Positions 2,826 through 37,612 are shown, counted from the stretch's first letter. The stretch: 64,000 bases of DNA from an uncultured Pseudomonadota bacterium (GCA_902785935.1 CADAAN010000003.1:33035-97034), one strand, 5' to 3'. Notes: generated by a model from the sequence alone, not told the origin. Made by a program: numbers and translations.

Positions 2826-3437
2826 ATGAAATATAGAAACGAATCAGGCAGAAGTATGGTTGAAATGCTCGGTATGCTGGCCGTTATCGGGGTGTTATCG
2901 GCGGGCGCACTCAAAGGTTACAGCGCCGCAATGTTTAAATACAAAATGAATCAAACGATTGACACGTATAATCAAGTCCTTCAACGCTTTATGGAATTAG
3001 AGCAAAAAGGCTGGAAAGAAGGTATTGAGATTTATGATGCCGAAGATTTAATCAAATACGGGCTTTTACCGGATTGTCAGGTAATAACAGATTCTTATGG
3101 AACAGAGGTTTGCAAACTTCCGATAGGAACATTGGGTATGGGTTTTTATGATAACGGTTCATATGTTTTGGGTGAATTTAGAATATATTTCACCGATTCA
3201 AAATCGTGTATTGCTTTTGCCTCTGCAGGATGGGAAAAGGCATCTCCGGTTGAATGGTGGAATAAACCGGCAGAAAATTATCAAGGCGGATTTATACAAG
3301 CAGGAAGCAAGGACATATACTGGCCTGCAGAAGGTATTACGGAAGTTAAAATGTCTGATATCATCGAGGGGTGCCAGATATGCGAAACAAACTTAGACAC
3401 TTGTTATTTTTATCATGTTATCAGAAATGAATTATAA
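2826..3437 (+). CDS. Type IV pilin-like or pseudopilin-like protein with a prepilin-type N-terminal cleavage/methylation motif
   Basis: AGGAGA RBS then ATG at 2826. MKYRNESG|RSMVEMLGMLAVIGVLSAGAL gives a G at -1 and an E at +5 of a class III signal peptide, followed by a hydrophobic helix. There is a C-terminal Cys pair (CQICETNLDTC). No pilus assembly genes are adjacent. Confidence 0.6.
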   Translation: MKYRNESGRSMVEMLGMLAVIGVLSAGALKGYSAAMFKYKMNQTIDTYNQVLQRFMELEQKGWKEGIEIYDAEDLIKYGLLPDCQVITDSYGTEVCKLPIGTLGMGFYDNGSYVLGEFRIYFTDSKSCIAFASAGWEKASPVEWWNKPAENYQGGFIQAGSKDIYWPAEGITEVKMSDIIEGCQICETNLDTCYFYHVIRNEL

Positions 3438-9896: not shown

Positions 9897-12800
9897 CTAT
9901 TTAAAGCGCTTGACAAGCTTGTTGTTGAAGTAGATGGTGCAAATGCCATCTTTGACTTCAATCTTGTATCCATTGACCTTGGAATTCTGTTCCGATTTGG
10001 ACCAGCCCCAAGTGTTCATGGATTTCTCCGTCAGGGAACGAACATTAGTACCATTGTCCTTATAAAGAACCTGGTTGCTCTTATCCTCAACGGTAGCAAG
10101 CTGCCAATTACCGCTCTTGTCGGTGTCATAGCCTGCGACGTAGTCAGCGTCGTAGTAGCTACGCTCGACATAGTTGGCGTTCTTGATGGCGTCGTCGCTC
10201 GGAAGGGCGACATTGTCATTGGCACCGGCAAAGGGGATATAAGCACCCTTATGCTCTTTGGTGACAACGGCAAGACCCTTGATCTTATCAAGGTGACCAT
10301 CTTTGTTGATGTACTTGGAACCATTCCAAGCAGCAGCAACGGCACGGACATCAACGGACAAGATCGTGCCCGGGACGATATCCTCCACCTCAACCTCGAC
10401 CAGAATCTGGCGCTTCACAGCGTCAGAAAGGTTGGCAATAACAGTACCATCAATAGAATATACGCCGTAGAAGTTCTCCTGATAATTGGAGGCTTCATAA
10501 GCGATACCGTTGACGGTCTTGTTACCGGCGGCCACAATGGCATCGGTGCTGTTAGACATAACCATCTGACCATTGAAGGTATGGGTATAATCCCCATCCT
10601 TATAGGTGATGGTCTGATCAAAACCAAAGTCAGCGACATTCGTCTCAGACTTGGCACCATTGCTCATGGTGCTGGTGATTTGACCTTTTTTATTGCTAAC
10701 AGTCCAGTAGCTGTTCGAGCTGCTGGAAGTGCTGCCGTTACGCTCACCGTTGTAGACGGTAGCAAACAGATTATTTGCAGCATACACATCGGTGCCTGCC
10801 TGAGCCGTCAGGAAATAGGCGGGGGTGAAGGGGTCCCTACGAACCTGAACCTTCACATCGTCGGTCACGTCATAGACGTACACAACGGCCTGCCCATTTT
10901 CTACCTTAGGCTCATGCGTGCGCACGGTCTCCGGGGTATAGGTACCAACCATGTTGCCCTCGATGGTGTAGGTGGTCGGGTTGCCAACGGCGGCCTTGGT
11001 CTGCACGCCATCGTCGGTGGAGAGGGTCACCTCGACCTGAGGGGTCAGGGTGACGTTGTTACCGGCAACGGCAGAAGCAACCATATCGACAGCCTTTACT
11101 GCATCGACGGAAGTCGTTGCAAGCGTTACGCCATCAATGCTGACCACTTCGTCCTTCTCTTCAAGACGCAGATATGCGGGTTTGCCTGCAACGTAACCGC
11201 GGAAGTTACGAGCTGTGACCTCATAGGTCTTGCCGTTTTCCTCGACGGTTTTTTTCGGCTCGTTGGCGGTTTCGCCAAAAGATGCCCAGGTGAAGTTGGC
11301 GTTCAGGCCTTCCTTGGTTGCCACGCCAAAGGTGGGCGTCACGGTCAGGGTGGCCGTGATGATCTTTTCCTGAGTATAAGTCTGCTCGGAACCGGCTTTT
11401 TTGACGCCGTTCACGTATTCAGCCTTTTTCACAGTATTCAGACCAGTGCCAACCAGGGTATTCCCGTTCACGTTTGCCGTGAAGGAATAGTCCTTGCTCT
11501 CAACCTTCGTCTCCACGGTGTCGTCGTGCTTGACGAGCACGTCGTAAGCCGTGGAGGCATCCTTCGTCACCTTCTTACCTTCACAGGCAAGAGTGGCGCG
11601 CGTGCTGTTCTTGTAAGCATACGCGTCATAGGTGACATTATTGACGCTCTTGGTGCCATGGGCGGTGGCGGCGACTTTGCCTTCCAGCTCCTCAAAGGAG
11701 ATGCTACACTTGACAGTTACGCTTGCACCATTGTAAGAAAGAGTGGTCTCCTTCTTATTCAGGGTCCAATCGTAAATGTTCTGGGTGCTTTCCTTCTTGT
11801 TGGAGAGGGTGTTCCGATAAGTATTGCCGGAAACACCATTGCTGGTGGTGGCAAAATCGGAAGCACTTGAGGCAATCAGGTCGCTGTGCTCGCGGCCGGC
11901 ATAGCTGTACACAAACTCGTCGTCCAAGGTCTTGGCCAAATACTCCGGCTTAAGGTTGGATTTCATGTAGAAGTCCACCTTTACATCAAAACCATTTTCC
12001 TTAGCGGTAATGGTCTTGACCTGGCGGGTATTCTCGAACACTTCCTCGACCTTTACCCGAATCTCACGACTAGAGGTGGCGGAAAGGTTGATGCTGGCGG
12101 TTTCATTTTTCCAAGTAGCGGTGTATACGGGAGCAATGCTTGCAACGTAGTCGCTCACATTGTAGTATACGCCGTTAATGGTCTGAAGACCTTTTGCAGT
12201 GATGTTCTGCTGAACACCATCGCAAACCAGCTTGCAGATAACAGTTTCGGTGCAATCCTTGTAGCTGTAGGTGATGCTTTCATCACCATACAGGCTAAAG
12301 GTGCTCACGAAGCCTTCGCCCTCATGTCCATTACTGGCAGAGGCATTGAAAGTCATGTTACCTGTTCCTTCAACCTTGGTGCCGGTGGTCTTGTAACCAT
12401 CGGTGGAAGCCAGTACATAGCCATAATTCTGACCCTGTGCAGTAGCCGTTCTTACGAAAGGCTTGCGATCCACTTCGATGATGCCGGAGAGGCTCCATTC
12501 CTCGCGGGTGACAAAAGCTCCCTTGATGGTCTGGTTTTCCTCAGACAGCTCAACCACCATCCAACGACGAATGAATTTGTCCTCAGGATCCGGGGCAACA
12601 AAGAACTTGAGGCTCAGGGTGTCCCTCACCTCAAACTTCTTGCTGGCCTGAGCCTCTTTGCCGGCCTTTACAAAATCGTTAACCACATTTGCCACCAGAG
12701 TATGGATGGCGATGTAGTTGTTGGTTTTGTAGTAACCGCCGTTGTCGGCGGCTACATTGGCCTTCACCAGCGTGTCTTTCACGCTGTGGCTCCAAGCAAC

Positions 12801-13346
12801 ATCCGGGAAGTCCTTTGCCAGGGAATCCTTGGCAAAGTGGGCGTCAGAAGAGCTGTAGGTCAGCTCAAAGTCAGCACCATATTTCCCATTCGAAAGCTTG
12901 GAAGCAAGAGCGCGGACACTCTGCGTTCCATACCAGTCACCGGAGTTCCAGGTGTTGGAAGCTTCCTTAACCTCGCTCTCGGCGTACTTGACACCGTCGA
13001 GCTCGGCCTCAGAAGAAACTTCCTTCTCCACTTTGGCACCACCCTTGACCTCGATGGGTCTGGTCATGGAAGAACCGTACAGGTCTTTTTCACCCGCGGT
13101 CTTCCATGTGTTAGTGGACTTGTACTCGTAGTTCACTACGAGGTCAATCCACTCCCATCCGTAGTGGTTTGTCTTTAGCAGGGTGTCGGTCTGGGGCTTC
13201 GGCTGTTCCGGAGCCTTACCAGGAACATAGCCATAAGCAGAGGTGTTATCCCCTGCCTCAGTCTTAGTCTCCAATTCCATTTTGTTGCAAGCAACCATCG
13301 CGGCCATCATCCCGATAGCGGCGATCACTTTAAAACTTTTTTTCAT
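9897..13346 (-). CDS. Large (1149 aa) predicted surface lipoprotein or adhesin-like protein. Thr/Val/Gly/Asn/Tyr-rich and beta-rich. Compositionally atypical (G+C-rich) relative to the surrounding genome.
   Basis: MKKSFKVIAAIGMMAAMVAC is a signal peptide with a lipobox-like Cys. It is a single uninterrupted ORF. The long antisense ORFs in the six-frame track are artefacts of the high G+C. Confidence 0.7.
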   Translation of the reverse strand: MKKSFKVIAAIGMMAAMVACNKMELETKTEAGDNTSAYGYVPGKAPEQPKPQTDTLLKTNHYGWEWIDLVVNYEYKSTNTWKTAGEKDLYGSSMTRPIEVKGGAKVEKEVSSEAELDGVKYAESEVKEASNTWNSGDWYGTQSVRALASKLSNGKYGADFELTYSSSDAHFAKDSLAKDFPDVAWSHSVKDTLVKANVAADNGGYYKTNNYIAIHTLVANVVNDFVKAGKEAQASKKFEVRDTLSLKFFVAPDPEDKFIRRWMVVELSEENQTIKGAFVTREEWSLSGIIEVDRKPFVRTATAQGQNYGYVLASTDGYKTTGTKVEGTGNMTFNASASNGHEGEGFVSTFSLYGDESITYSYKDCTETVICKLVCDGVQQNITAKGLQTINGVYYNVSDYVASIAPVYTATWKNETASINLSATSSREIRVKVEEVFENTRQVKTITAKENGFDVKVDFYMKSNLKPEYLAKTLDDEFVYSYAGREHSDLIASSASDFATTSNGVSGNTYRNTLSNKKESTQNIYDWTLNKKETTLSYNGASVTVKCSISFEELEGKVAATAHGTKSVNNVTYDAYAYKNSTRATLACEGKKVTKDASTAYDVLVKHDDTVETKVESKDYSFTANVNGNTLVGTGLNTVKKAEYVNGVKKAGSEQTYTQEKIITATLTVTPTFGVATKEGLNANFTWASFGETANEPKKTVEENGKTYEVTARNFRGYVAGKPAYLRLEEKDEVVSIDGVTLATTSVDAVKAVDMVASAVAGNNVTLTPQVEVTLSTDDGVQTKAAVGNPTTYTIEGNMVGTYTPETVRTHEPKVENGQAVVYVYDVTDDVKVQVRRDPFTPAYFLTAQAGTDVYAANNLFATVYNGERNGSTSSSSNSYWTVSNKKGQITSTMSNGAKSETNVADFGFDQTITYKDGDYTHTFNGQMVMSNSTDAIVAAGNKTVNGIAYEASNYQENFYGVYSIDGTVIANLSDAVKRQILVEVEVEDIVPGTILSVDVRAVAAAWNGSKYINKDGHLDKIKGLAVVTKEHKGAYIPFAGANDNVALPSDDAIKNANYVERSYYDADYVAGYDTDKSGNWQLATVEDKSNQVLYKDNGTNVRSLTEKSMNTWGWSKSEQNSKVNGYKIEVKDGICTIYFNNKLVKRFK

Positions 13347-19214: not shown

Positions 19215-20007
19215 ATGAGAAAAAGTCAATTTATATTTGTATTAATGCTTAGCACAGCTTTAGGTTTAGCAAATGTTTATGCCGGCGGTTCGTGCGCACC
19301 TGATGGTGACACAACAAGCACATGCCATTGGGAAATTGAAAACAGAGTCCTGACAATTTCGGGTTCAGGTGCGATGGTGAATTATAGTTCACCATCTATG
19401 TATCCTTGGTATTCACAAAAAGATTCTTATACATCCGTTGTGGTTGAGGGAGCTAATGAAACAACAGGAACGACAGGTGTTACTTCAATCGCAAAAGTGG
19501 CATTTCGAGGCAACAACCTGACCTCGGTTGTGATTCCCGATTCTGTTACTTCAATCGGACTGGGTGCATTTTATAGCAACAACCTGACCTCGGTTGTGAT
19601 TCCGGATTCTGTTACTTCAATCGGAAGGATGGCATTTTGGGGTTCTCAAGCAACGGATTTAGTCTGCAGTGCCGAAAATTTGCAAAGATATTTGGGTGCA
19701 GCTGGCGCATTTGTAAATTCGGGCGACATTAACCTCTCTTGCACAACAGGCATTTGTAAATTCGGGCGACATTAACCTCTCTTGCACAACAGGTGATTGT
19801 CAAGCCGTTTTGGAAGCTTGGGATACAGCAAAAGGTACAAATTACGCATCGCGCGCAAAAACAATCCTGACAAATCAGGACGGAAGTAAGACAATTTACG
19901 ATTTGAGCGGAAATTTGCTCGGCTATAAAGGCAAGCGCATTTACACCGTTGAAGAGGCCAATCAAGTTGCAGGCAAAGTCAATTCGGTCAAGATAAGGTA
20001 TCGATGA
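19215..20007 (+). pseudogene. BspA-type leucine-rich-repeat secreted protein, disrupted by a frameshifting 43-bp tandem duplication
   Basis: Signal peptide, BspA-like LRRs (VVIPDSVTSIG... twice), a stop after the duplication, and the C-terminal conserved domain (KRIYTVEEANQVAGKVNSVKIRYR) continuing in another frame. Removing one 43-bp copy restores a 249-aa ORF. Confidence 0.65.
19708..19793. repeat. Perfect 43-bp tandem duplication (catttgtaaattcgggcgacattaacctctcttgcacaacagg x2) inside the LRR gene
   Basis: 19708-19750 is identical to 19751-19793. 43 is not a multiple of 3. Confidence 0.85.
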
Positions 20008-20010
20008 GGG

Positions 20011-20150
20011 TGAGATCCGCGGGACTTCGCCCGCGGATAACAATAAGGGACAGGTCGCCCGATGTGGGGCACGCCCGTTAATGACAGGATAAATGCGGGG
20101 CACGCCCGCAGATAACAAAGGAATACACCCGCGGACAACCATAGGGCTGT
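20011..20150. repeat. G+C-rich degenerate repeat cluster: a hairpin ccgcgggacttcgcccgcgg, ggggcacgcccg twice, and cccgcRgaYaacaa three times
   Basis: Seen by eye in an otherwise AT-rich intergenic region immediately 3' of the LRR pseudogene. Confidence 0.4.
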
Positions 20151-20274
20151 TTTGTTTCGTTCAATATAGGTCAAATCACTATTTTTTTAATCTTAAATGT
20201 GATTTTGTTGTTGCAATTTATTTTATTTGATTTATTAGTGTTTGGTATAAAGAACTAATATTTTGAGGATAAAT

Positions 20275-21858
20275 ATGAACGAATATCGTACACACACCTG
20301 CGGCGAGCTCCGCAGCACGGATGTCGGCAAAAGGGTTTTGCTTGCCGGCTGGATACATCGCAAACGCAATTTAGGCAATTTGTGCTTTGTTGATCTTCGA
20401 GATCATTACGGCATCACACAGTGCGTGTTCGATTCGTCCTCGGATTTGTTTGAAAAAATTCAAAACCTGCGTGTTGAGAGCGTCATCGGTGTTGAAGGTG
20501 AAGTCGTGATGCGTGAAAGCATCAATAAAAATATCAAAACGGGCGATATCGAAATCAAAGTGCAAAATCTTGTTGTGCATTCTGAAGCGGACCAAATACC
20601 TTTTCAGGTTGCATTTGAAGATGATTCGCCCGAAGAATTGCGCCTCAAATACCGCTTTTTGGATTTAAGACGTGAACGTGTTCACAACAATATTATGCTG
20701 CGCTCAAAAGTCATCAAACGTATGCGTGAACTCATGATTGAGCAAGGTTTTACAGAATATCAAACTCCGATTTTGACGGCCTCTTCTCCTGAAGGTGCGC
20801 GTGACTTTTTGGTGCCTTCGCGCATTAATCCGGGCAGATTTTACGCATTGCCCCAGGCGCCGCAACAATTCAAGCAACTTTTGATGGTTTCAGGCTTTGA
20901 TAAATATTTTCAGATTGCGCCGTGTTTCAGGGATGAAGATCCGCGTGCTGACCGTTCTCCGGGCGAATTTTACCAACTTGATATGGAGATGAGTTTTGCC
21001 ACCCAAGAAGATGTTTTTGCTGTCTTAGAATATACAATGGGTACGATTTTTGAAGAATTTTCAAACGGCAGAAAAGTTTCAAAAGCACCATTTATCCGCA
21101 TTCCGTTTAAAGAAGCGATGCTTAAATACGGCTCGGATAAACCAGATTTAAGAAATCCGCTTGTTATTCAAGACGCCACAGGGTTGTTTGGTCATTCGGG
21201 ATTTAGCGTTTATGATACAAAAGTTGCCGAGGGCGAAAAAATCAGAGCGATTGTTTTGCCTGCATGCGGTGACAAACCACGTTCATTTTTTGATAAATTT
21301 GACGCTTTTGCCAAAGAAAATAATATGGGCGGCATGGCCTATATCGCTTTTTCTTCAAACGGGGCAAAGGGTCTTGCAAAACTTTTTGATGAGGTCAAAT
21401 TGGCTGAAATCAAAAACAGCTTAAATATCAAAGACGGCGATGCCGTGCTTTTGATGGCGGGCAAAGAAAAAGTTTTGAACAAATTTGCGGGTCTTACACG
21501 CAACAAGGCCGGCGAAGCGCTTGATTTGTTTGAAAAAGATGCTTTCAAATTGTGCTGGATTGTTGATTTTCCGTTTTATGAAGAAAATGAAGAAACGGGT
21601 GCGGTTGAATTTTCACACAACCCGTTCTCAATGCCTCAAGGCGGTATGGACGCTTTATTAAACAAAAATCCGCTTGATATTTTGGCTTATCAATATGATA
21701 TGGTATGTAACGGGGTGGAATTAGCATCCGGTGCAGTACGCAATCACAGGCCAGAAATTATGTATAAAGCCTTTGAAATTGCAGGTTATGATCACAGCGT
21801 TGTGGACTTGATCGTACGGTTATGCTCCTTTTGGATGAGCCGATTATCAGAGATGTGA
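20275..21858 (+). CDS. aspS: Aspartate--tRNA ligase. The C-terminal motif-3 region ([23 protein letters not shown]...) is in the -1 frame and ends at 21971, so there is an apparent frameshift.
   Basis: N-terminal OB fold and class IIb catalytic core. Frame A stops at 21858, while the conserved GLDR...RDVI.FP C-terminus is readable only in another frame from about 21804. Confidence 0.75.
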
Positions 21859-24399: not shown

Positions 24400-24508
24400 A
24401 AAAACACCCCTTTATCTTTTGCGATAAAGGGGCTTGTTTTATGATATCAAAAAATAAAAATATATTTCCTTTATTGTTTTTTAAGAAAAACATTTATATA
24501 ATATTTTC

Positions 24509-24700
24509 AGCACTGAAAAGTGCGGGGCTTCTAAAAGTCTTACCATACACGGCAAAGGATATGTGCCGTAAAAATATATCCCCGATGATGGCTCGGGGAG
24601 CTTATAGCGTATGTTCAAGGATTTATCCTAAAGGTTATAAGAGTCAGCTCGTAATGATGATTGTTTTACTCTCCGACCGCTTTTTAAAGTGGTCTTTTTT
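24509..24700 (+). ncRNA. Candidate small RNA or cis-acting leader, copy 1 (predicted transcription start to terminator)
   Basis: -35 at 24474-24479, -10 at 24497-24502, hairpins gcac-tgaaaa-gtgc, cggca-N9-tgccg, ccccga-N7-tcgggg, terminator at 24675-24700. Confidence 0.35.
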
Positions 24701-24795
24701 CTTTAACCACAGTCTAAGGAGAATAAAATGATATCAAAAAATAAAAATCTGTTTCTTTTATTGTTTTTTAAGAAAAACATTTATATAATATTTTC

Positions 24796-24984
24796 AGCAC
24801 TGAAAAGTGCGGAGTTTCTAAAAGCTCTTAACTACTCGGCAAAGGATATGTGCCGTAAAAATATATCCCCGAATTTTTGGTCGGGGTGCTTTCAGCGTAT
24901 GTTCAAGGTTTTCCCAAAGGCTGAAAGGTCATTAGTAGTTATGATTTTTAGACTCTCCGACCGCTTTTTGAGTGGTCTTTTTTC
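24796..24984 (+). ncRNA. Candidate small RNA or leader, copy 2
   Basis: -35 at 24761-24766, -10 at 24784-24789. Same hairpins with loop changes (ccccga-atttttgg-tcgggg). Terminator at 24959-24984. Confidence 0.35.
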
Positions 24985-25078
24985 TTTAACCACAGTCTAA
25001 GGAGAATAAAATGACATCAAAAAATAAAAATTTGCTTCTTTTATTGTTTTTTAAGAAAAACATTTATATAATACTTTC

Positions 25079-25210
25079 AGCACTGAAAAGTGCGGGGCTT
25101 AAAACAGCCTTACCATACACGGCAAAGGATATATGCCGTAAAAATATATCCCCGATGATGGCTCGTATGATTTTTAGACTCTCCGACCGCTTTTTAAAGT
25201 GGTCTTTTTT
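25079..25210 (+). ncRNA. Candidate small RNA or leader, copy 3 (internally shortened), directly preceding the RBS of the 25238 gene
   Basis: -35 at 25044-25049, -10 at 25067-25072, terminator at 25185-25210. Confidence 0.35.
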
Positions 25211-25728: not shown

Positions 25729-27492
25729 TTATTTATAAAGCGGGCGCTTTTGGTATTTTGTATGAAGCAAATGGTGCGACTTTTCATCACCCGGTTTGCC
25801 TAAATAATCAGCGTAGAGCTTTTGAATCGATTCGTTCTTGTGTGACAGTCTGTTTTGAGCACACTGATCTTCACAGTTCAAGCCTCTTGAACGCAATTTT
25901 CTGATTTCATCATTAATGCCCCAAGGCTTATCAAACGTTGCACCCATCACACGCGGTTGACCACCGCCGGCAATACATCCGCCGGGGCAAGCCATCACTT
26001 CAATAAAGTGATACGGCAATTCTCTGCCTTCAGCGATTGCCTTATTGATTTGTTCCATCACGGGTTCAACATTGCCGACGCCGTTGACAACAGCAATGCG
26101 CACTTTTGTCCCTTTAATATCAACTTCGGCAACCTTAACAGCTTCTAAACCTTCAATTGCGTGAAAATTGAGCTCACCCAATTCTTCACCCGTGATGAAG
26201 AAATAAGCCGATCTTAAAGCCGCCGTCATCACACCGCCGGTTACACCGAAAATCGTCGCCGCACCTGAATACTCACCCAAAGGATTGTCAGCAGGTTCTT
26301 CTTTCAAGTTCTTAAAGTTGATGCCGGCTTTTTTTATCATCTTGGCAAGCTCACGTGTCGTGATAACTTCATCAACATCCTGATATCCTGATGATGACAT
26401 TGTTTCATCACGTGCAATTTCCCACTTTTTGGCTGTGCAAGGCATGACTGATACAACTTTAACTTTTGCTGCATCAACACCGGCTTTTTGTGCCCAATAT
26501 GTTTTAGCTATTGCGCCAACCATTTCATGCGGCGATTTGCAAGATGACAAATTCGGGATATTTTCGGGATAATATTTTTCGAGATAGTCCACCCATGCCG
26601 GACAGCATGAAGTGAACATCGGTAAATTGTCGTTAGACGTAAAGCGTTTGATAAACTCTGATGCCTCTTCCATAATCGTTAAATCGGCGCCGAAGTTTGT
26701 GTCAAAAACCTTTGCAAAACCCAAACGACGCAATGCCGCATAAATTTTGCCCGTTAAATTTTCACCAAAATCAAAACCGAATTCTTCACCCAAAGCGACT
26801 CTGACAGCAGGTGCAATTTGCACCACAGTCGTCAATTCTTTATCGGCAAGCATGGCTTCAACCTTTGAGGTGTTGTCATAATCTGTAATAGCACCTGTCG
26901 GACAGTGCGCTGCGCATTGACCACATTTGATACACGGCGAATCGCCGAGTTTTGTATCATTTGCACCGGTGACTTTGGTTACAAAACCACGATTTAAGTA
27001 GCTTAAAGCCCACACATTTTGCACATTCTGACAAATGCTGACGCATCTGCCGCAAACAATACATTTTTGAGGGTCTAAAACAATGGCTTTTGTCGTGTCA
27101 TCTTTCGGCTCGGATGAAAGCATACGGATAATCTCGTTTTGGTCAATACCCATTTGCTCGCTCATGGCCTGCAATTCGCAAGAGCCGCTTCTTGAGCAGT
27201 TTAAGCAATCATTCGGATGATGGCTCAAAATCAGCTTCAAAACCGTCTTTCTGATTTCCTGTAACTCGGCATCGTTCGTGATGATTTCCATATTTTCGGA
27301 AACAGGCGTACAGCATGAACGCATAATTCTTCCGCCAACTTTAACGATACACATACCACATCCGGCACTTGGGTCAACATCGGGGTGTTTGCAAAGTGTC
27401 GGAATTTCTACCTGAACACTGCGCGCAGCGTCCAAAATGCTTGTGCCGGCAGGAACTTCAACATCCATATTATTGATTTTTAATTTAACCAT
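25729..27492 (-). CDS. hydA: [FeFe]-hydrogenase catalytic subunit (HydA/HndD type)
   Basis: N-terminal 2Fe-2S ferredoxin, 4Fe-4S Cys clusters, H-cluster motifs (TSCCPAW, MPCTAKK, CPGGCIAGGGQP). Confidence 0.85.
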   Translation of the reverse strand: MVKLKINNMDVEVPAGTSILDAARSVQVEIPTLCKHPDVDPSAGCGMCIVKVGGRIMRSCCTPVSENMEIITNDAELQEIRKTVLKLILSHHPNDCLNCSRSGSCELQAMSEQMGIDQNEIIRMLSSEPKDDTTKAIVLDPQKCIVCGRCVSICQNVQNVWALSYLNRGFVTKVTGANDTKLGDSPCIKCGQCAAHCPTGAITDYDNTSKVEAMLADKELTTVVQIAPAVRVALGEEFGFDFGENLTGKIYAALRRLGFAKVFDTNFGADLTIMEEASEFIKRFTSNDNLPMFTSCCPAWVDYLEKYYPENIPNLSSCKSPHEMVGAIAKTYWAQKAGVDAAKVKVVSVMPCTAKKWEIARDETMSSSGYQDVDEVITTRELAKMIKKAGINFKNLKEEPADNPLGEYSGAATIFGVTGGVMTAALRSAYFFITGEELGELNFHAIEGLEAVKVAEVDIKGTKVRIAVVNGVGNVEPVMEQINKAIAEGRELPYHFIEVMACPGGCIAGGGQPRVMGATFDKPWGINDEIRKLRSRGLNCEDQCAQNRLSHKNESIQKLYADYLGKPGDEKSHHLLHTKYQKRPLYK

Positions 27493-27504
27493 TTTAATTT
27501 TCTC

Positions 27505-29172
27505 CTATTCTTTACCGTCAAGCAATTTATTTTGATATTCTTCTTCATAAAAACGAAGCGTTGATAAAACCGGATTCGGCGCCGTTTGACCCAAACCGCA
27601 AAGCGACGCTTTTTGCATGGCAAACGCGATTTGCTTTAATTGTTCCAAATCTTTCTTTTTACCGCGACCGCGGTTGATTTTATCCAAGAGAACAAGCATT
27701 TGTTTGCCGCCGATACGACATGGCGCACATTTACCGCAAGATTCATCAACCGTAAAGTCAAGATAAAACTTTGCAAGCGAAACCATATCCGAGCTGTCAT
27801 CAATCACAATCATACCGCCGGAGCCCATAATTGAACCAAGTTTTTTGAGTTCTTCATAACAAACAGGCATATCCATATATTTTGCCGGAATCACACCGCC
27901 TGACGGACCGCCCGTTTGTACGGCTTTGAGCTTTTTGCCTTGAGGCACACCGCCGCCGATTTCGTTGACGATTTCATTGATTGTTGTACCCATCGGCACT
28001 TCAATAAGGCCTGAATGTTCAACTTGACCTGTTAAGGCAAAAACCTTTGTGCCCTTAGATGTTTCAGTCCCGAATGAGGCAAACCAATCAGCGCCTTTTA
28101 ATAAAATTTTAGAAACATTGGCAAGCGTTTCAACGTTGTTGACGCAAGAAGGTTTACCCCACAAGCCTTTGTTTGTCGGATACGGCGGACGCGGGCGCGG
28201 CGTACCTCTCGCCCCTTCGATGGAATGAATAAGTGCCGTTTCTTCACCGCAGACAAAAGCACCTGCACCAAGGCGGATGTCAACATTAAAGCTAAAGTCC
28301 GTGCCCATGATGTTGTTGCCTAAGAGTCTGTTTTTCTTGCAGGCCTGAATGGCTTTTTGCAACCTTTCAACCGCTAAAGGATATTCCGCCCTGACATAAA
28401 ACCAACCGGCTGTTGCGCCGATGGCATAGGCCGCAATCATCATACCTTCAATTACGGCATGCGGATCGCCTTCCAAAATCGAGCGATCCATATAAGCTCC
28501 CGGATCACCCTCATCACCGTTGCAGATAATAAATTTTTCATCAACGGTCGGGACTTTAGCGGCAAGTTCCCACTTCATACCGGTTGAAAAACCGCCGCCG
28601 CCTCTGCCGCGCAAGCCTGATTTTTTGATTTCTTCAACAACCTCTTGCGGCGTCATTGTTTTTAAGGCTTTTTCAAGTGCAAGATAACCGCCGCGCGCCA
28701 TATATTCTCTGATATCTTCAGGGTCAATGTGGCCGGCATTTTTCAAAACAACTTTTTCCTGTTTTTTGAAAAACGGCAGATCAAGCGATAAAACGTATTT
28801 TTGCAGATTTTCACAAACTTCAACATCATTATCCAAAGCCGGAATAACATATTCTTCCATAATTGCGCGAGTCGCATCTAAATCAATACGCTTGAAAAGC
28901 ACATCTTTTTTGCCTTTGATTTCAACTCTGATAAGCGGACCTTGTGCGCAAAGTCCCATGCAACCAGTGGCCACAATACGCACGCGCTCTTTCAAACCTT
29001 TTTCTTCTAAAATTTGTTCAATCAAAGCAATTAAATCATCACTGCCTGAAGATTTACAACCCGTAGAATGACAGCAATAAATATGCGCTTCATATTTTTC
29101 AATCTCGGCAAGTTTATCCTTAGCGATTTCGTGAATATCAAATCTTTTAGCAATTTCAGCCATATCAACCAT
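27505..29172 (-). CDS. hydB: NuoF-like flavoprotein subunit of a bifurcating hydrogenase (HydB/HndC type)
   Basis: GGGGFSTGMKWE FMN/NADH site, an N-terminal thioredoxin-like 2Fe-2S domain, and C-terminal 4Fe-4S Cys motifs. Confidence 0.85.
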   Translation of the reverse strand: MVDMAEIAKRFDIHEIAKDKLAEIEKYEAHIYCCHSTGCKSSGSDDLIALIEQILEEKGLKERVRIVATGCMGLCAQGPLIRVEIKGKKDVLFKRIDLDATRAIMEEYVIPALDNDVEVCENLQKYVLSLDLPFFKKQEKVVLKNAGHIDPEDIREYMARGGYLALEKALKTMTPQEVVEEIKKSGLRGRGGGGFSTGMKWELAAKVPTVDEKFIICNGDEGDPGAYMDRSILEGDPHAVIEGMMIAAYAIGATAGWFYVRAEYPLAVERLQKAIQACKKNRLLGNNIMGTDFSFNVDIRLGAGAFVCGEETALIHSIEGARGTPRPRPPYPTNKGLWGKPSCVNNVETLANVSKILLKGADWFASFGTETSKGTKVFALTGQVEHSGLIEVPMGTTINEIVNEIGGGVPQGKKLKAVQTGGPSGGVIPAKYMDMPVCYEELKKLGSIMGSGGMIVIDDSSDMVSLAKFYLDFTVDESCGKCAPCRIGGKQMLVLLDKINRGRGKKKDLEQLKQIAFAMQKASLCGLGQTAPNPVLSTLRFYEEEYQNKLLDGKE

Positions 29173-29175
29173 AAT

Positions 29176-29655
29176 CTAAGCCTCCTTAAAAACTTCACGC
29201 CATTCGTTTAAGATTTCGGGCACTTGTTCAGGCGTCATACGGCCGTAAGTTTTGCCGTTGACGACACAAACAGGTGCCAAACCGCAACAACCGACACAAC
29301 GCACACATTGCAAATGGAACATATGGTCAGGCGTCGATTCACCCTCTTTGATTTTAAGTTCTGATTTGAACTTTTCCAAAACTTTGTCATTGCCCTTCAA
29401 ATAACAAGCCGTACCCGTGCAAACGGAAATGACGGCCTTGCCGGGGGCGACAAGCTTAAAAAAGTTGTAAAACGTCAAAACTTCATAAATGCGTGCAAGC
29501 GGAATGCCCATTGTGGTGGCTAAATCCATCGCATCTTTCCAGTCAACATAACCTTTGACACCTTGAATTTCATGCAAAGCCATAATCAGTGAGCCGCGTT
29601 TTTTACGCCATTTATCACCAACCTGACAACCAAGACAAGTATCTTCACTCATCAT
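29176..29655 (-). CDS. hydC: NuoE-like 2Fe-2S subunit (HydC/HndA type)
   Basis: Thioredoxin-like ferredoxin with CTGTAC...CVRCVGCCGLAPV. Confidence 0.8.
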   Translation of the reverse strand: MMSEDTCLGCQVGDKWRKKRGSLIMALHEIQGVKGYVDWKDAMDLATTMGIPLARIYEVLTFYNFFKLVAPGKAVISVCTGTACYLKGNDKVLEKFKSELKIKEGESTPDHMFHLQCVRCVGCCGLAPVCVVNGKTYGRMTPEQVPEILNEWREVFKEA

Positions 29656-29917: not shown

Positions 29918-31405
29918 ATGGCAAATTTTTGGCAAAGAGGGCTTATTGCTTTGGGGTTGACGTCAGTTTTATCCGGCACACCTTCCCTTGCGGCGGAAAA
30001 AGAGCATCCCGAAAGCGAAAAAGATAAAGACAGGACTGAAACAACGGCAGACATTCCTGCATCAAAGCAATCTCTCATAAATGTTGAGAATTCTAATCTT
30101 CGTGTGTTTCATAAAACTTATAACCTGCGTGCATCGGACATGATTCCTGGAAAGCTTGATTCTCACTATATTCCGAGAAATGTTTGTCGGGGTGAACAGA
30201 TGGACAAATATTATCACAATGCTCATTACGATCCGGTAATGAATGTTATTGTCTTAAATCAGTATAAAATGAGCGATGCGGATGCGTTTAAAAGAGGGTT
30301 GGAAGATTTTACAAATAGGGCGAATATGCCCAAAGATTTGCAAAGTGCTCTTAATTCCTTTAATGCCGCTTTGCTGGATTCAAGGCTTGCAACACCGATA
30401 AAATCCGAAAACGGAAAAACCATCAAAGTTTATCAAGGTCCGACGGCCAAAACATTGTCTGATGTTGCGCATATCCTTTCTCAAAAGGGACAGTTCAAAC
30501 AAAAGGACGAGGAATGGTTGAATCGTGTTGCTTTTGAAACGGGGCTTAAATCGGCGATGTCTGTGCAGAATTATATTTCGGGCATAAACAAAGAGAATGC
30601 ATCTTTTAAAACCGTCGGGCATGAATTCGGGCACTATCAATTTCAACAAGTTATTGACCAGATGGAAAAAGAGGGAAAATTTATGGAAGATTTAACCCCG
30701 CAAGATCGGTTAACTTTGCATATTGCTGATGAAATGACACAATATATACATCATGATAAAGCAGACAAGACAACATCTGAGGCCATAACTGATTTCTGTG
30801 CAGATAAACAAAACAATTACTTTAACCATTACGAAGAGCCTGTTTTAGCGGAAACAATAGGTTCTGCCACGTACAGACAATGGTCAAAACAAAATATGAA
30901 TGTTGCAGAAGGTGCTGTTGACAGCAAAGCGCTTATACAAAAATCAGGAGCTTTCTTAGATGAGGTGCTTGAAAGAGTTTATGACAATAAAGAAGAATTA
31001 GCATTGGTTAAAAAAGAGTTAGAGAGTTATCAATCATCGCCGTCTTATAAAAATCTTTCAAATCAGTGGCGAAGCTTTGTAAATTCAACTTCGACGGAGG
31101 CCGTTGAAGCGGCTCAATATAGCCGCATCTCGCCGGAATATCTGACAAGCCTGCATAATACAAGAAAAAGCACTGATAAGGCGTCATCTATCGAAGGCGG
31201 TTTTTATAACAATCTGACGGACGCCACAAGCCTTTATCTGAAGACGATGCCTAATGAGGATAATTTAGCTCGTGCAAAAGCAAAACTTGCTCAAAGAGAA
31301 GCGTCAAATAGCGGTGAAAATGCTGTTGTGGCCCAAAACACACAAACAAACGCTACTTCACGTACTTTTGTCTTGAACCAAACATCGTTTGAACAATTGC
31401 GTTAA
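29918..31405 (+). CDS. Secreted protein with an HExxH zinc-metallopeptidase-like motif (VGHEFGHYQF)
   Basis: Signal peptide (MANFWQRGLIALGLTSVLSGTPSLAAEK) and HEFGH. No further family match was recognised. A TTGACA-17-TAATAT promoter lies at 29861-29889. Confidence 0.45.
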   Translation: MANFWQRGLIALGLTSVLSGTPSLAAEKEHPESEKDKDRTETTADIPASKQSLINVENSNLRVFHKTYNLRASDMIPGKLDSHYIPRNVCRGEQMDKYYHNAHYDPVMNVIVLNQYKMSDADAFKRGLEDFTNRANMPKDLQSALNSFNAALLDSRLATPIKSENGKTIKVYQGPTAKTLSDVAHILSQKGQFKQKDEEWLNRVAFETGLKSAMSVQNYISGINKENASFKTVGHEFGHYQFQQVIDQMEKEGKFMEDLTPQDRLTLHIADEMTQYIHHDKADKTTSEAITDFCADKQNNYFNHYEEPVLAETIGSATYRQWSKQNMNVAEGAVDSKALIQKSGAFLDEVLERVYDNKEELALVKKELESYQSSPSYKNLSNQWRSFVNSTSTEAVEAAQYSRISPEYLTSLHNTRKSTDKASSIEGGFYNNLTDATSLYLKTMPNEDNLARAKAKLAQREASNSGENAVVAQNTQTNATSRTFVLNQTSFEQLR

Positions 31406-36748: not shown

Positions 36749-37612
36749 TTATCGATATTTTATCTTAAAGGAATTAACCTCACCCGCCACAAAATTTGCC
36801 TCATCGATGGTGTAGATACGCTTTTTGATATAGTTCGGTGTGCCGATGTCATTTGCTTTTGCATACCACCTGCCTTGATAAAACACATTTCCGTCTGCAG
36901 TTTTTTGATAGGTTACGAGCTCAACGTTTTTATCGGTGTCTTGCAAAAAGGAAATTGCTGCCTTGCACTGAGCTTTAAGATTTTCGGCACAATATAATTT
37001 TTTAAGATTAATCACGCTGGAACCACGAAAAGCCTCATTTGAAATATATGTCACATTTTCAGGTATCACCAATTCTTCTGGTGTGAGAGGAAGTGTATCA
37101 GAGCCGATAAGTGTCAAAGATGAGGGAAGAAGAGAAAAATCCGGATTATTTCTGTAAGAAGCTAAAGCAAAATTTTCAAGTGTTGTTAATCCATCCGGAA
37201 TATTGATTTTTTCTAAGTTTCCAATATTTGCAAAAGCTTCTGCTCTGATGACTTTTAAGCTTTTTGGCAAAGAAACTTCCGAGATGGCATACATATCTTC
37301 AAAGGCATGTGCTCCGACAGATGTCATTCCTTCTTCAATAACAACATTATTTACTCTGCCTATTATTTGCGATTGAGCCCACGGCGCGGGGTTTGAGGTT
37401 GGAAGGCCATATAAACCATCATATCTAAAAGTATATGCTTTCATTTCACCTGTGCCGGAGATTGTCAATGTTGAACCTTCAAATGTTGCCGTGCACGAAC
37501 CCGTTGAATTTTCAGGTGTGCAATCCCATACGCATTTTCCTTGTTCATCACAGTCCGCCATTGCAACAATCGGCAACAAAAGAAACCCTGAAGTCAAAGA
37601 TATTTTTTTCAT
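36749..37612 (-). CDS. BspA-type leucine-rich-repeat secreted protein, an intact paralog of 19215-20007 with the same conserved C-terminal domain
   Basis: Signal peptide MKKISLTSGFLLLPIVAMA, a Cys-rich stretch, LRRs, and C-terminal KRIYTIDEANFVAGEVNSFKIKYR. Confidence 0.7.
   Translation of the reverse strand: MKKISLTSGFLLLPIVAMADCDEQGKCVWDCTPENSTGSCTATFEGSTLTISGTGEMKAYTFRYDGLYGLPTSNPAPWAQSQIIGRVNNVVIEEGMTSVGAHAFEDMYAISEVSLPKSLKVIRAEAFANIGNLEKINIPDGLTTLENFALASYRNNPDFSLLPSSLTLIGSDTLPLTPEELVIPENVTYISNEAFRGSSVINLKKLYCAENLKAQCKAAISFLQDTDKNVELVTYQKTADGNVFYQGRWYAKANDIGTPNYIKKRIYTIDEANFVAGEVNSFKIKYR

Follow-up and report, generated by a model that had tools for sequence, protein, structure and literature searches.

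A conserved, portable C-terminal peptide on BspA-type leucine-rich repeat proteins of ruminant-gut Alphaproteobacteria

A 64,000-nucleotide stretch of DNA from an uncultured Pseudomonadota bacterium (GCA_902785935.1 CADAAN010000003.1:33035-97034), hereafter the window, encodes BspA-type leucine-rich repeat (LRR) proteins that end in a shared peptide of 24-25 residues. This C-terminal tail, or tag, is real and not previously described. It is maintained by selection on the peptide itself, it is portable between protein scaffolds, and its last four residues are genome-specific, tracking the host genome rather than the body of the protein that carries it. The tag may well be an autonomous address, bound through its free C-terminus by a genome-encoded partner in the cell envelope, probably for retention of the tagged proteins (here called cargo) at the cell surface.

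Conservation and anatomy of the tag

A six-frame fuzzy scan of the window found exactly three copies of the motif: KRIYTIDEANFVAGEVNSFKIKYR on the minus strand (copy 1, 36752-36823), and KRIYTVEEANQVAGKVNSVKIRYR (copy 2, 19933-20004) and KRIYTIDEANAVAGKTNTFSIRYR (copy 3, 58025-58096) on the plus strand. Their consensus is KRIYT[IV][DE]EANxVAGxxNxxxI[KR]YR, and a stop codon follows directly 3' of each. A preliminary description of this DNA had reported three near-identical copies, always at the extreme C-terminus; the scan bears this out, and the coordinates given there differ from ours only by including the stop codon. In pairwise comparison the copies agree at 17-18 of the 24 residues and at no more than 48-52 of the 72 bases, 8-9 of the identical residues in each pair are encoded by different codons, and the nucleotide similarity ends at the stop codon. 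The use of different codons at shared residues and the abrupt end of the DNA similarity indicate that the peptide is conserved, and that the copies reflect neither a DNA repeat nor chance. Third codon positions vary freely, which together with the end of similarity at the stop codon leads us to reject a DNA repeat or a transcription terminator as the conserved element. The invariant or near-invariant residues of the tag (R, I, Y, T, E, A, N, I/L and Y) use two to six synonymous codons; selection acts on the tag peptide.

The position of the tag is as conserved as its sequence. Overall it is terminal in 294 of 295 occurrences: the stop codon lies 8-12 codons past the core in all 71 six-frame occurrences from the window and the genome loci described below, and the same placement is seen in 223 of 224 protein occurrences, the lone exception being a truncated fragment. 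All 143 new top matches listed from an exhaustive protein search end in [IVL]-[RKT]-Y-[RK], with Arg as the last residue in 106 and Lys in 37.

Two lengths of the tag occur, one of 24 residues (...VAGxxNxVxIxYR) and one of 25 (...V[AS]KPTGNT[FV]x[IL]xY[KR]); an example of the peptide is IYTIDEANFVAGEVNSFK. Hydrophobic residues at positions -6 (V/F), -4 (I/L) and -2 (Y) alternate with polar or basic residues at -7, -5, -3 and -1, giving the C-terminus the pattern of an amphipathic strand. The sequences are best explained by a short strand (RIYT[IV]) that leads into a helix of two turns ([DE]EAxxV[AS]G), followed by a turn containing an invariant Asn and by the amphipathic terminal strand, x-V/F-x-I/L-[KR]-Y-[KR]-COOH. 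The tail sequences contain no hydrophobic stretch, and a dibasic K-K/R precedes the tag in most copies.

Novelty and distribution

The preliminary description could assign the tag to no known family, and our searches agree. When tail-bearing open reading frames (ORFs) were scanned against Pfam-A and NCBIfam r20 at E <= 1, only LRR families matched and no family covered the tail. A tail profile run against PDB sequences had ribosomal protein L1 as its sole match, attributable to chance (KIYTIDEA, E 1.4), and nothing on the tail was found in the literature searched. Public annotation of the carriers reads 'leucine-rich repeat domain-containing protein [Alphaproteobacteria bacterium]'.

To scan genomes we used the tail alignment as query against one genome per GTDB species. 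This gave 50 loci in only five metagenome-assembled genomes (MAGs), RUG11221, RGIG5118, RGIG10106, RGIG9974 and Reindeer_2_mag_112, all of them ruminant-gut Alphaproteobacteria. The 50 loci contain 67 tail-ending ORFs, at least 44 of which belong to RUG11221. The preliminary description had proposed a profile search to count cargo proteins; an exhaustive HMMER search with a 46-position profile against 1.84 billion protein cluster representatives returned 531 clusters at E <= 1e-3, of which 193 also pass E <= 1e-10. In a scan of JGI metagenomes (241 million records), 132 tail loci were confirmed, the best 80 of which come from about nine projects. With 67 copies in five species genomes, 531 clusters and 132 metagenome loci, the motif is far from confined to the window. 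The preliminary description had named two results that would speak against a tag, a match to a described domain and absence of the motif elsewhere in the genome; neither is seen. The tail is abundant but phylogenetically and ecologically narrow. Other queries returned little: the genome scan with the whole protein gave no match, a homology search with a 58-residue tail gave one fragment, and a plasmid search gave no match for the locus.

Cargo proteins

Most carriers are BspA-type LRR proteins. Pfam family LRR_5 is present on 53 of the 57 full-length carriers from the genome loci and on 125 of the 143 new matches listed, fragments among them. The tail is also found at the end of an RHS-repeat protein (L040:3742-4605; RHS E 5e-11), a TPR/SNAP-like protein (L018:5841-6752; E 1e-7), several YD-like repeat proteins (P0199, P0211, P0225, L058, L133 and L136) and bodies that have no Pfam match (L037:6935-7966 and P0234). 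Because one tail is found on such different bodies, its conserved polar residues cannot serve to contact any single kind of body.

At the N-terminus, 108 of the 124 full-length members have a basic n-region and then a hydrophobic run, the signature of a predicted signal peptide, and no full-length member shown has a lipobox. Within the window, the bodies of the paralogs are 24-45% identical and their tails 71-75% identical. Tail-less LRR_5 relatives from other phyla carry SLH (PF00395), dockerin (PF00404) or hydrophobic membrane anchors at their C-termini.

Genome-matched endings and exchange of bodies

The last four residues of the tag follow the genome in which it resides. The tails of RUG11221 end in I-K-Y-R, with Ile at -4 in 44 of 44 and Arg last in 41 of 44, and those of RGIG5118 end in L-R-Y-K, with Leu at -4 in 13 of 16, Arg at -3 in 15 of 16 and Lys last in all 16. 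A bias in base composition does not account for the switch, as both genomes have 40% G+C and Lys and Arg trade places between -3 and -1. Gene conversion was rejected as well, since the same residue is encoded by up to six codons within a genome. The last 72 nucleotides of the genes within one genome are on average only 57-66% identical, with no identical pair. From the varied codons, the low identity and the lack of identical copies we conclude that the ending is kept by selection on each gene.

The bodies behave differently from the endings: for 10 of 15 RGIG5118 bodies, the closest body is in RUG11221. In the clearest case, the proteins encoded at L026:9344-10243 (RGIG5118) and L011:90-986 (RUG11221) are 93% identical over about 270 residues, the first 120 of which are identical. 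At the DNA level, L011:82-940 and L026:9335-10194 are 93% identical, and 100% identical over 300 nucleotides. The homology extends from about 8 nucleotides 5' of the start codon to KRIYT, the first residues of the tag, and the flanks are unrelated. The two tails, VEEATKLSKKTGNTFKLKYK in L026 and IDEANAVAGEKNRVSIKYR in L011, are each of their own genome's type. This points to a recent transfer or recombination between species that involved the body only. Movement of a body with retention of the resident tail is expected if all tails in a genome fit one genome-encoded partner; it is also consistent with the frequent occurrence of 3' remnants of cargo genes.

An intact cargo gene and its predicted structure

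Copy 1 ends an intact gene of 287 residues on the minus strand (36749-37612, stop codon 36749-36751), in which the tag occupies residues 264-287. From the N-terminus, the protein consists of a signal peptide, a Cys-rich region, a BspA-type LRR solenoid, a β-hairpin region and the tag. The predicted Sec signal peptide, MKKISLTSGFLLLPIVAMA (37556-37612, minus strand), has no lipobox and would be cleaved after AMA. LRR_5 (PF13306) matches residues 87-199 (37016-37354, minus strand) with an E-value of 2.6e-20 and 73 bits, against a cutoff of 27.7. An identical protein is found in public assemblies (P0002). The gene lies between der/bamB and miaB, and an LRR gene occupies the same position in RUG11221 (L015).

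Models were calculated with AlphaFold2 (AF2) using database homologs; the alignment for the full protein contained 49 sequences. The mean predicted local distance difference test score (pLDDT) is 86 and exceeds 90 in the solenoid and the following β-hairpin region, which packs confidently on the solenoid. The closest PDB entries to the body in a Foldseek search are the BspA-like LRR proteins 4h09 and 4fs7, TpLRR (6mlx) and PcpA (4cp6), a pneumococcal choline-anchored surface protein; the body of copy 1 is a bona fide BspA-type LRR protein. Along the tag the confidence drops, with pLDDT values of 74, 66 and 51. Within the tag only DEANFVAG is helical, and the model does not place the final 11 residues with confidence. 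The last strand is unpaired in the model, and the tag does not pack against the cargo. A model of the C-terminal 60 residues by themselves is similar (pLDDT 76).

A frameshifted paralog and a gene remnant

Copy 2 belongs to a second cargo gene, an LRR_5 paralog that is split into two ORFs in the window (19215-20007, plus strand). Its frame is broken by a perfect tandem duplication of 43 bp (19708-19793, plus strand), whose two units, 19708-19750 and 19751-19793, are identical. Removing one unit restores a 249-residue protein composed of a signal peptide, LRR_5 and the tail. The public ENA contig STEW19-1_SAMEA5383944_METAG-scaffold_366, of which the window forms part at 99.98-100% identity, does not contain the duplication and encodes the intact 249-residue LRR_5 protein at L055:3382-4131, exactly as reconstructed. 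A separate 65-residue ORF at copy 2 is therefore rejected; it is the end of the frameshifted gene. We cannot tell whether the duplication is a real variant, an assembly difference or a sequence artefact.

The second gene also contains an in-frame tandem repeat of 66 bp in 2.4 copies (19478-19638), which corresponds to duplicated LRR units, NNLTSVVIPDSVTSIG occurring twice; repeat number changes within the family. Directly downstream lies a GC-rich stretch (20010-20130), set in a genome of 40% G+C, that holds short inverted repeats (CCGCGGG...CCCGCGG) and a repeated GGGGCACGCCCG motif; terminator-like matches in this stretch are on the minus strand only.

Copy 3 ends an ORF of 57 codons, MAMVDLENANHPIEYKNKSYASVDDLLKGKHMPKRIYT..., located between a ybjN-like gene and ybgC (57926-58099, plus strand). 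The preliminary description had listed it as a stand-alone ORF. Its alignment to full-length relatives (80-84% identity) covers only their last 56 residues, it has neither a signal peptide nor an LRR region upstream, and it is absent from the gene calls of the ENA contig. Copy 3 is what remains of the 3' end of a cargo gene; it is neither a proven gene nor evidence for an independent tag protein. Synteny is kept in a JGI contig (L053:1668-1841), where the order is again lgt, ybjN, ORF, ybgC. The two versions of the ORF differ at 21 of 174 nucleotides, corresponding to 12 synonymous codons and six residue changes. In the flanks, lgt differs at 7 of 825 and ybjN at 10 of 489 nucleotides, and the intergenic DNA is almost identical. 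The divergence of copy 3 looks like a recombination patch brought in from another paralog. Other 3' remnants occur at L021:5875-6024 and L003:1893-1967 and as short tail-only ORFs.

Discussion

In the mechanism we favor, a repeat-protein cargo, mostly of the BspA-type LRR class, would be exported by Sec through an ordinary cleavable signal peptide and would fold in the envelope, consistent with its conserved Cys pairs. The exposed tail would then be bound by a single genome-encoded envelope partner, which would pair with the terminal strand by β-strand augmentation and also recognize the Tyr at -2, the basic residue at the end and the free carboxylate. The cargo would most likely end up retained or displayed on the cell surface. 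We infer the partner, the mode of binding and anchoring as the outcome from several observations. Last four residues that track the genome, and a tail on non-LRR bodies, are what a tag read by a shared partner predicts. Surface anchoring is suggested by the SLH, dockerin and membrane anchors at the same position in tail-less LRR_5 relatives, and by the structural neighbors PcpA and TpLRR, which are surface proteins. Two lineage-specific envelope proteins encoded in the window could be candidates for the partner: a predicted lipoprotein of 1149 residues (MKKSFKVIAAIGMMAAMVAC..., 9897-13346, minus strand) and a signal-peptide protein of 495 residues (29918-31405, plus strand), both without a Pfam or NCBIfam match.

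Several points weigh against this mechanism. Clustering of ORFs across the 50 loci found no non-housekeeping gene that recurs beside the cargo genes, which sit singly among housekeeping genes, and neither a partner nor an export or attachment machinery was found in these neighborhoods. To our knowledge, domains that read a C-terminal carboxylate, such as PDZ, seldom recognize ligands with a basic final residue. Common descent of the paralogs may explain part of the genome-specific pattern of endings, three of the RUG11221 tails have Lys as their last residue, the clear case of body exchange is a single pair, and the assignment of loci to genomes rests on MAG binning. The low AF2 confidence over a 24-residue invariant segment is weak, model-based evidence that the tag is flexible. 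The proposal in the preliminary description of a sorting or anchoring tag thus holds in part: the peptide is tag-like, with its non-LRR bodies and genome-tracking endings, but the dedicated export or attachment pathway expected there has no counterpart in a recurring neighbor gene.

A broader and more tentative possibility is that the clade possesses an unrecognised envelope sorting or anchoring system whose partner reads the 24-residue peptide down to its last four residues (IKYR or LRYK) and serves at least 40 cargos per genome. Repeat bodies would be shuffled between paralogs and species onto resident tags, producing cassette-like variation of the surface.

The tag could instead be an export signal, with folded cargo passed after Sec to an outer-membrane translocon and the tag perhaps removed, as for the C-terminal domain (CTD) of the type IX secretion system (T9SS). 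We regard this as rather unlikely, although the terminal position, the portability and the genome-matched endings would fit a shared partner of this kind equally well, and the dibasic K-K/R that precedes most copies could be a processing site. No translocon gene is seen near any cargo gene in the 50 loci, and a tag of just 24-25 residues with no fold of its own is unlike known outer-membrane export domains.

Less probable still is a purely structural role, in which the tail would be a C-terminal cap or an oligomerization strand, as in strand-swapped dimers, and would have no part in sorting. With its β-α-β layout the tag does resemble a repeat unit, confident packing on the solenoid is predicted for the hairpin region that precedes it, and C-terminal strands often mediate dimerization. 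However, the same tail is attached to unrelated scaffolds (LRR, YD/RHS-like and TPR-like), AF2 leaves it unpacked on the body, and a cap need not be the exact C-terminus in 294 of 295 cases. Nor would a cap be expected to switch between IKYR and LRYK by genome while the body remains 93% identical.

The conserved 3' end might also serve as a homology arm for exchanging body cassettes and thereby varying the surface repertoire, conservation of the peptide being secondary. Remnants of the 3' end are indeed common (copy 3, L021:5875-6024, L003:1893-1967 and the tail-only ORFs), two strains whose flanks diverge by at most 2% show 12% divergence in the copy 3 remnant, and the L011/L026 homology ends at the tag. 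Yet tail DNA that is 57-66% identical within a genome and free to vary at synonymous sites is a poor recombination substrate, and this pattern is the opposite of what a function at the DNA level predicts. We consider a homology arm improbable; recombination is better seen as happening around a protein-level tag. Recent paralog identity or chance, with no function of the tail's own, can be dismissed: although the three window copies belong to one paralogous family, their bodies are 24-45% identical against 71-75% for the tails, and the tail occurs in five species genomes, in 531 clusters and on different scaffolds.

The address tag we favor has analogs among known C-terminal signals. The preliminary description likened it to T9SS CTDs, LPXTG signals and β-signals; these prove to be analogies only, as the tag lacks the defining features of each. 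The nearest counterparts in position are the C-terminal anchors of other BspA-type LRR proteins (SLH, dockerin, choline-binding repeats and membrane anchors), which likewise follow the LRR_5 solenoid and combine a variable binding body with a common attachment module on an exported protein. Those anchors have known ligands and take the form of transmembrane segments or of folded domains or repeats 40-200 residues long, whereas the tag has 24-25 residues and no predicted autonomous fold, and occurs in a diderm alphaproteobacterium. The T9SS CTD (Por_Secre_tail) is a β-sandwich of about 70-100 residues found in Bacteroidota, where it tags Tannerella BspA among other proteins. It resembles the window tag as a conserved and portable C-terminal element on many Sec-exported cargos per genome, BspA-like LRR proteins included, but the window tag is a quarter of its length and occurs in Alphaproteobacteria. 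With no Pfam or NCBIfam match at E <= 1 and no confident fold, the tag does not belong to the CTD families (TIGR04183/PF18962).

The LPXTG/sortase, PEP-CTERM/exosortase and GlyGly-CTERM/rhombosortase signals are also found at the extreme C-terminus of many exported proteins per genome. In these tripartite signals, a short motif is followed by a hydrophobic transmembrane helix and then by a basic cluster, and each type of signal co-evolves with its own processing enzyme. The tail has no hydrophobic run and matches no CTERM family in NCBIfam. A type I secretion signal, which acts on proteins that lack a Sec signal peptide and leave straight from the cytoplasm, is equally at odds with the data, as 108 of 124 full-length members start with a typical predicted signal peptide.

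With the β-signal of outer-membrane proteins, read by the β-barrel assembly machinery (BAM), the tag shares the alternating hydrophobic residues at -6, -4 and -2, the penultimate Tyr and the free C-terminus. However, the last residue is Arg or Lys in all 143 listed proteins, and the cargo is an LRR solenoid and not a β-barrel. Outer-membrane proteins of the same clade end in Phe or Tyr (...GVRYYF, ...NFQYKF), so the tag is not a copy of the clade's own β-signal. The terminal strand, penultimate Tyr and free C-terminus together suggest β-strand augmentation plus carboxylate binding.

In chaperone-usher pilins the C-terminal strand likewise has a penultimate Tyr and alternating hydrophobic residues, for example in FimA, which ends ...TFKVQYQ. 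This logic of the strand is all that the pilins share with the tag, whose bodies are LRR solenoids or YD/TPR repeats and not the incomplete Ig-like folds that pilins complete by donor-strand complementation. Braun's lipoprotein Lpp (...YRK) is, like the tagged proteins, an envelope protein whose free C-terminus carries a basic/aromatic tripeptide, and is cross-linked to peptidoglycan through its terminal Lys by an L,D-transpeptidase. Such an attachment does not fit the cargo proteins, which are not lipoproteins; only 37 of the 143 listed end in Lys, and 41 of 44 RUG11221 tails end in Arg.

LPXTG, the T9SS CTD and PEP-CTERM have each brought to light a machine for secretion or anchoring, and C-terminal sorting tags provide the most reliable listing of a bacterial surface proteome from sequence alone. 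The tag described here probably marks the main repertoire through which an uncultured rumen lineage interacts with its host or with partners; one genome has at least 44 such genes. If the envelope partner that reads the tag exists, it would be a novel means by which folded proteins of the periplasm are addressed in diderm bacteria. The IKYR and LRYK endings, and the near-identical body found with either, constitute a natural experiment through which the partner could be identified by co-variation, and the tag is short enough to be a tractable peptide ligand.

Other features of the window

Besides the 43-bp duplication, the window differs from the ENA contig at two places. At 21807/21808, inside aspS (ORF 20263-21858), 70 bp of the contig are missing, which shortens AspS to an ORF of 531 residues, compared with 588 in the public gene call. 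A further 59 bp are absent at about 25165, the 3' end of a 283-bp tandem repeat (24441-25165; 2.5 copies, 88% matches) that overlaps small ORFs without family matches. On the plus strand, an ORF of 203 residues (2826-3437) without a family match has an N-terminus like a prepilin or pseudopilin leader (…GRSMVEMLGMLAVIGVLS…) and stands alone among glycosyltransferase and fatty-acid synthesis genes. The region 25729-29655 on the minus strand encodes a large [FeFe]-hydrogenase-like protein (Fe_hyd_lg_C) with NuoF-like and NuoE-like subunits, which suggests that this alphaproteobacterium lives anaerobically and produces hydrogen or bifurcates electrons.

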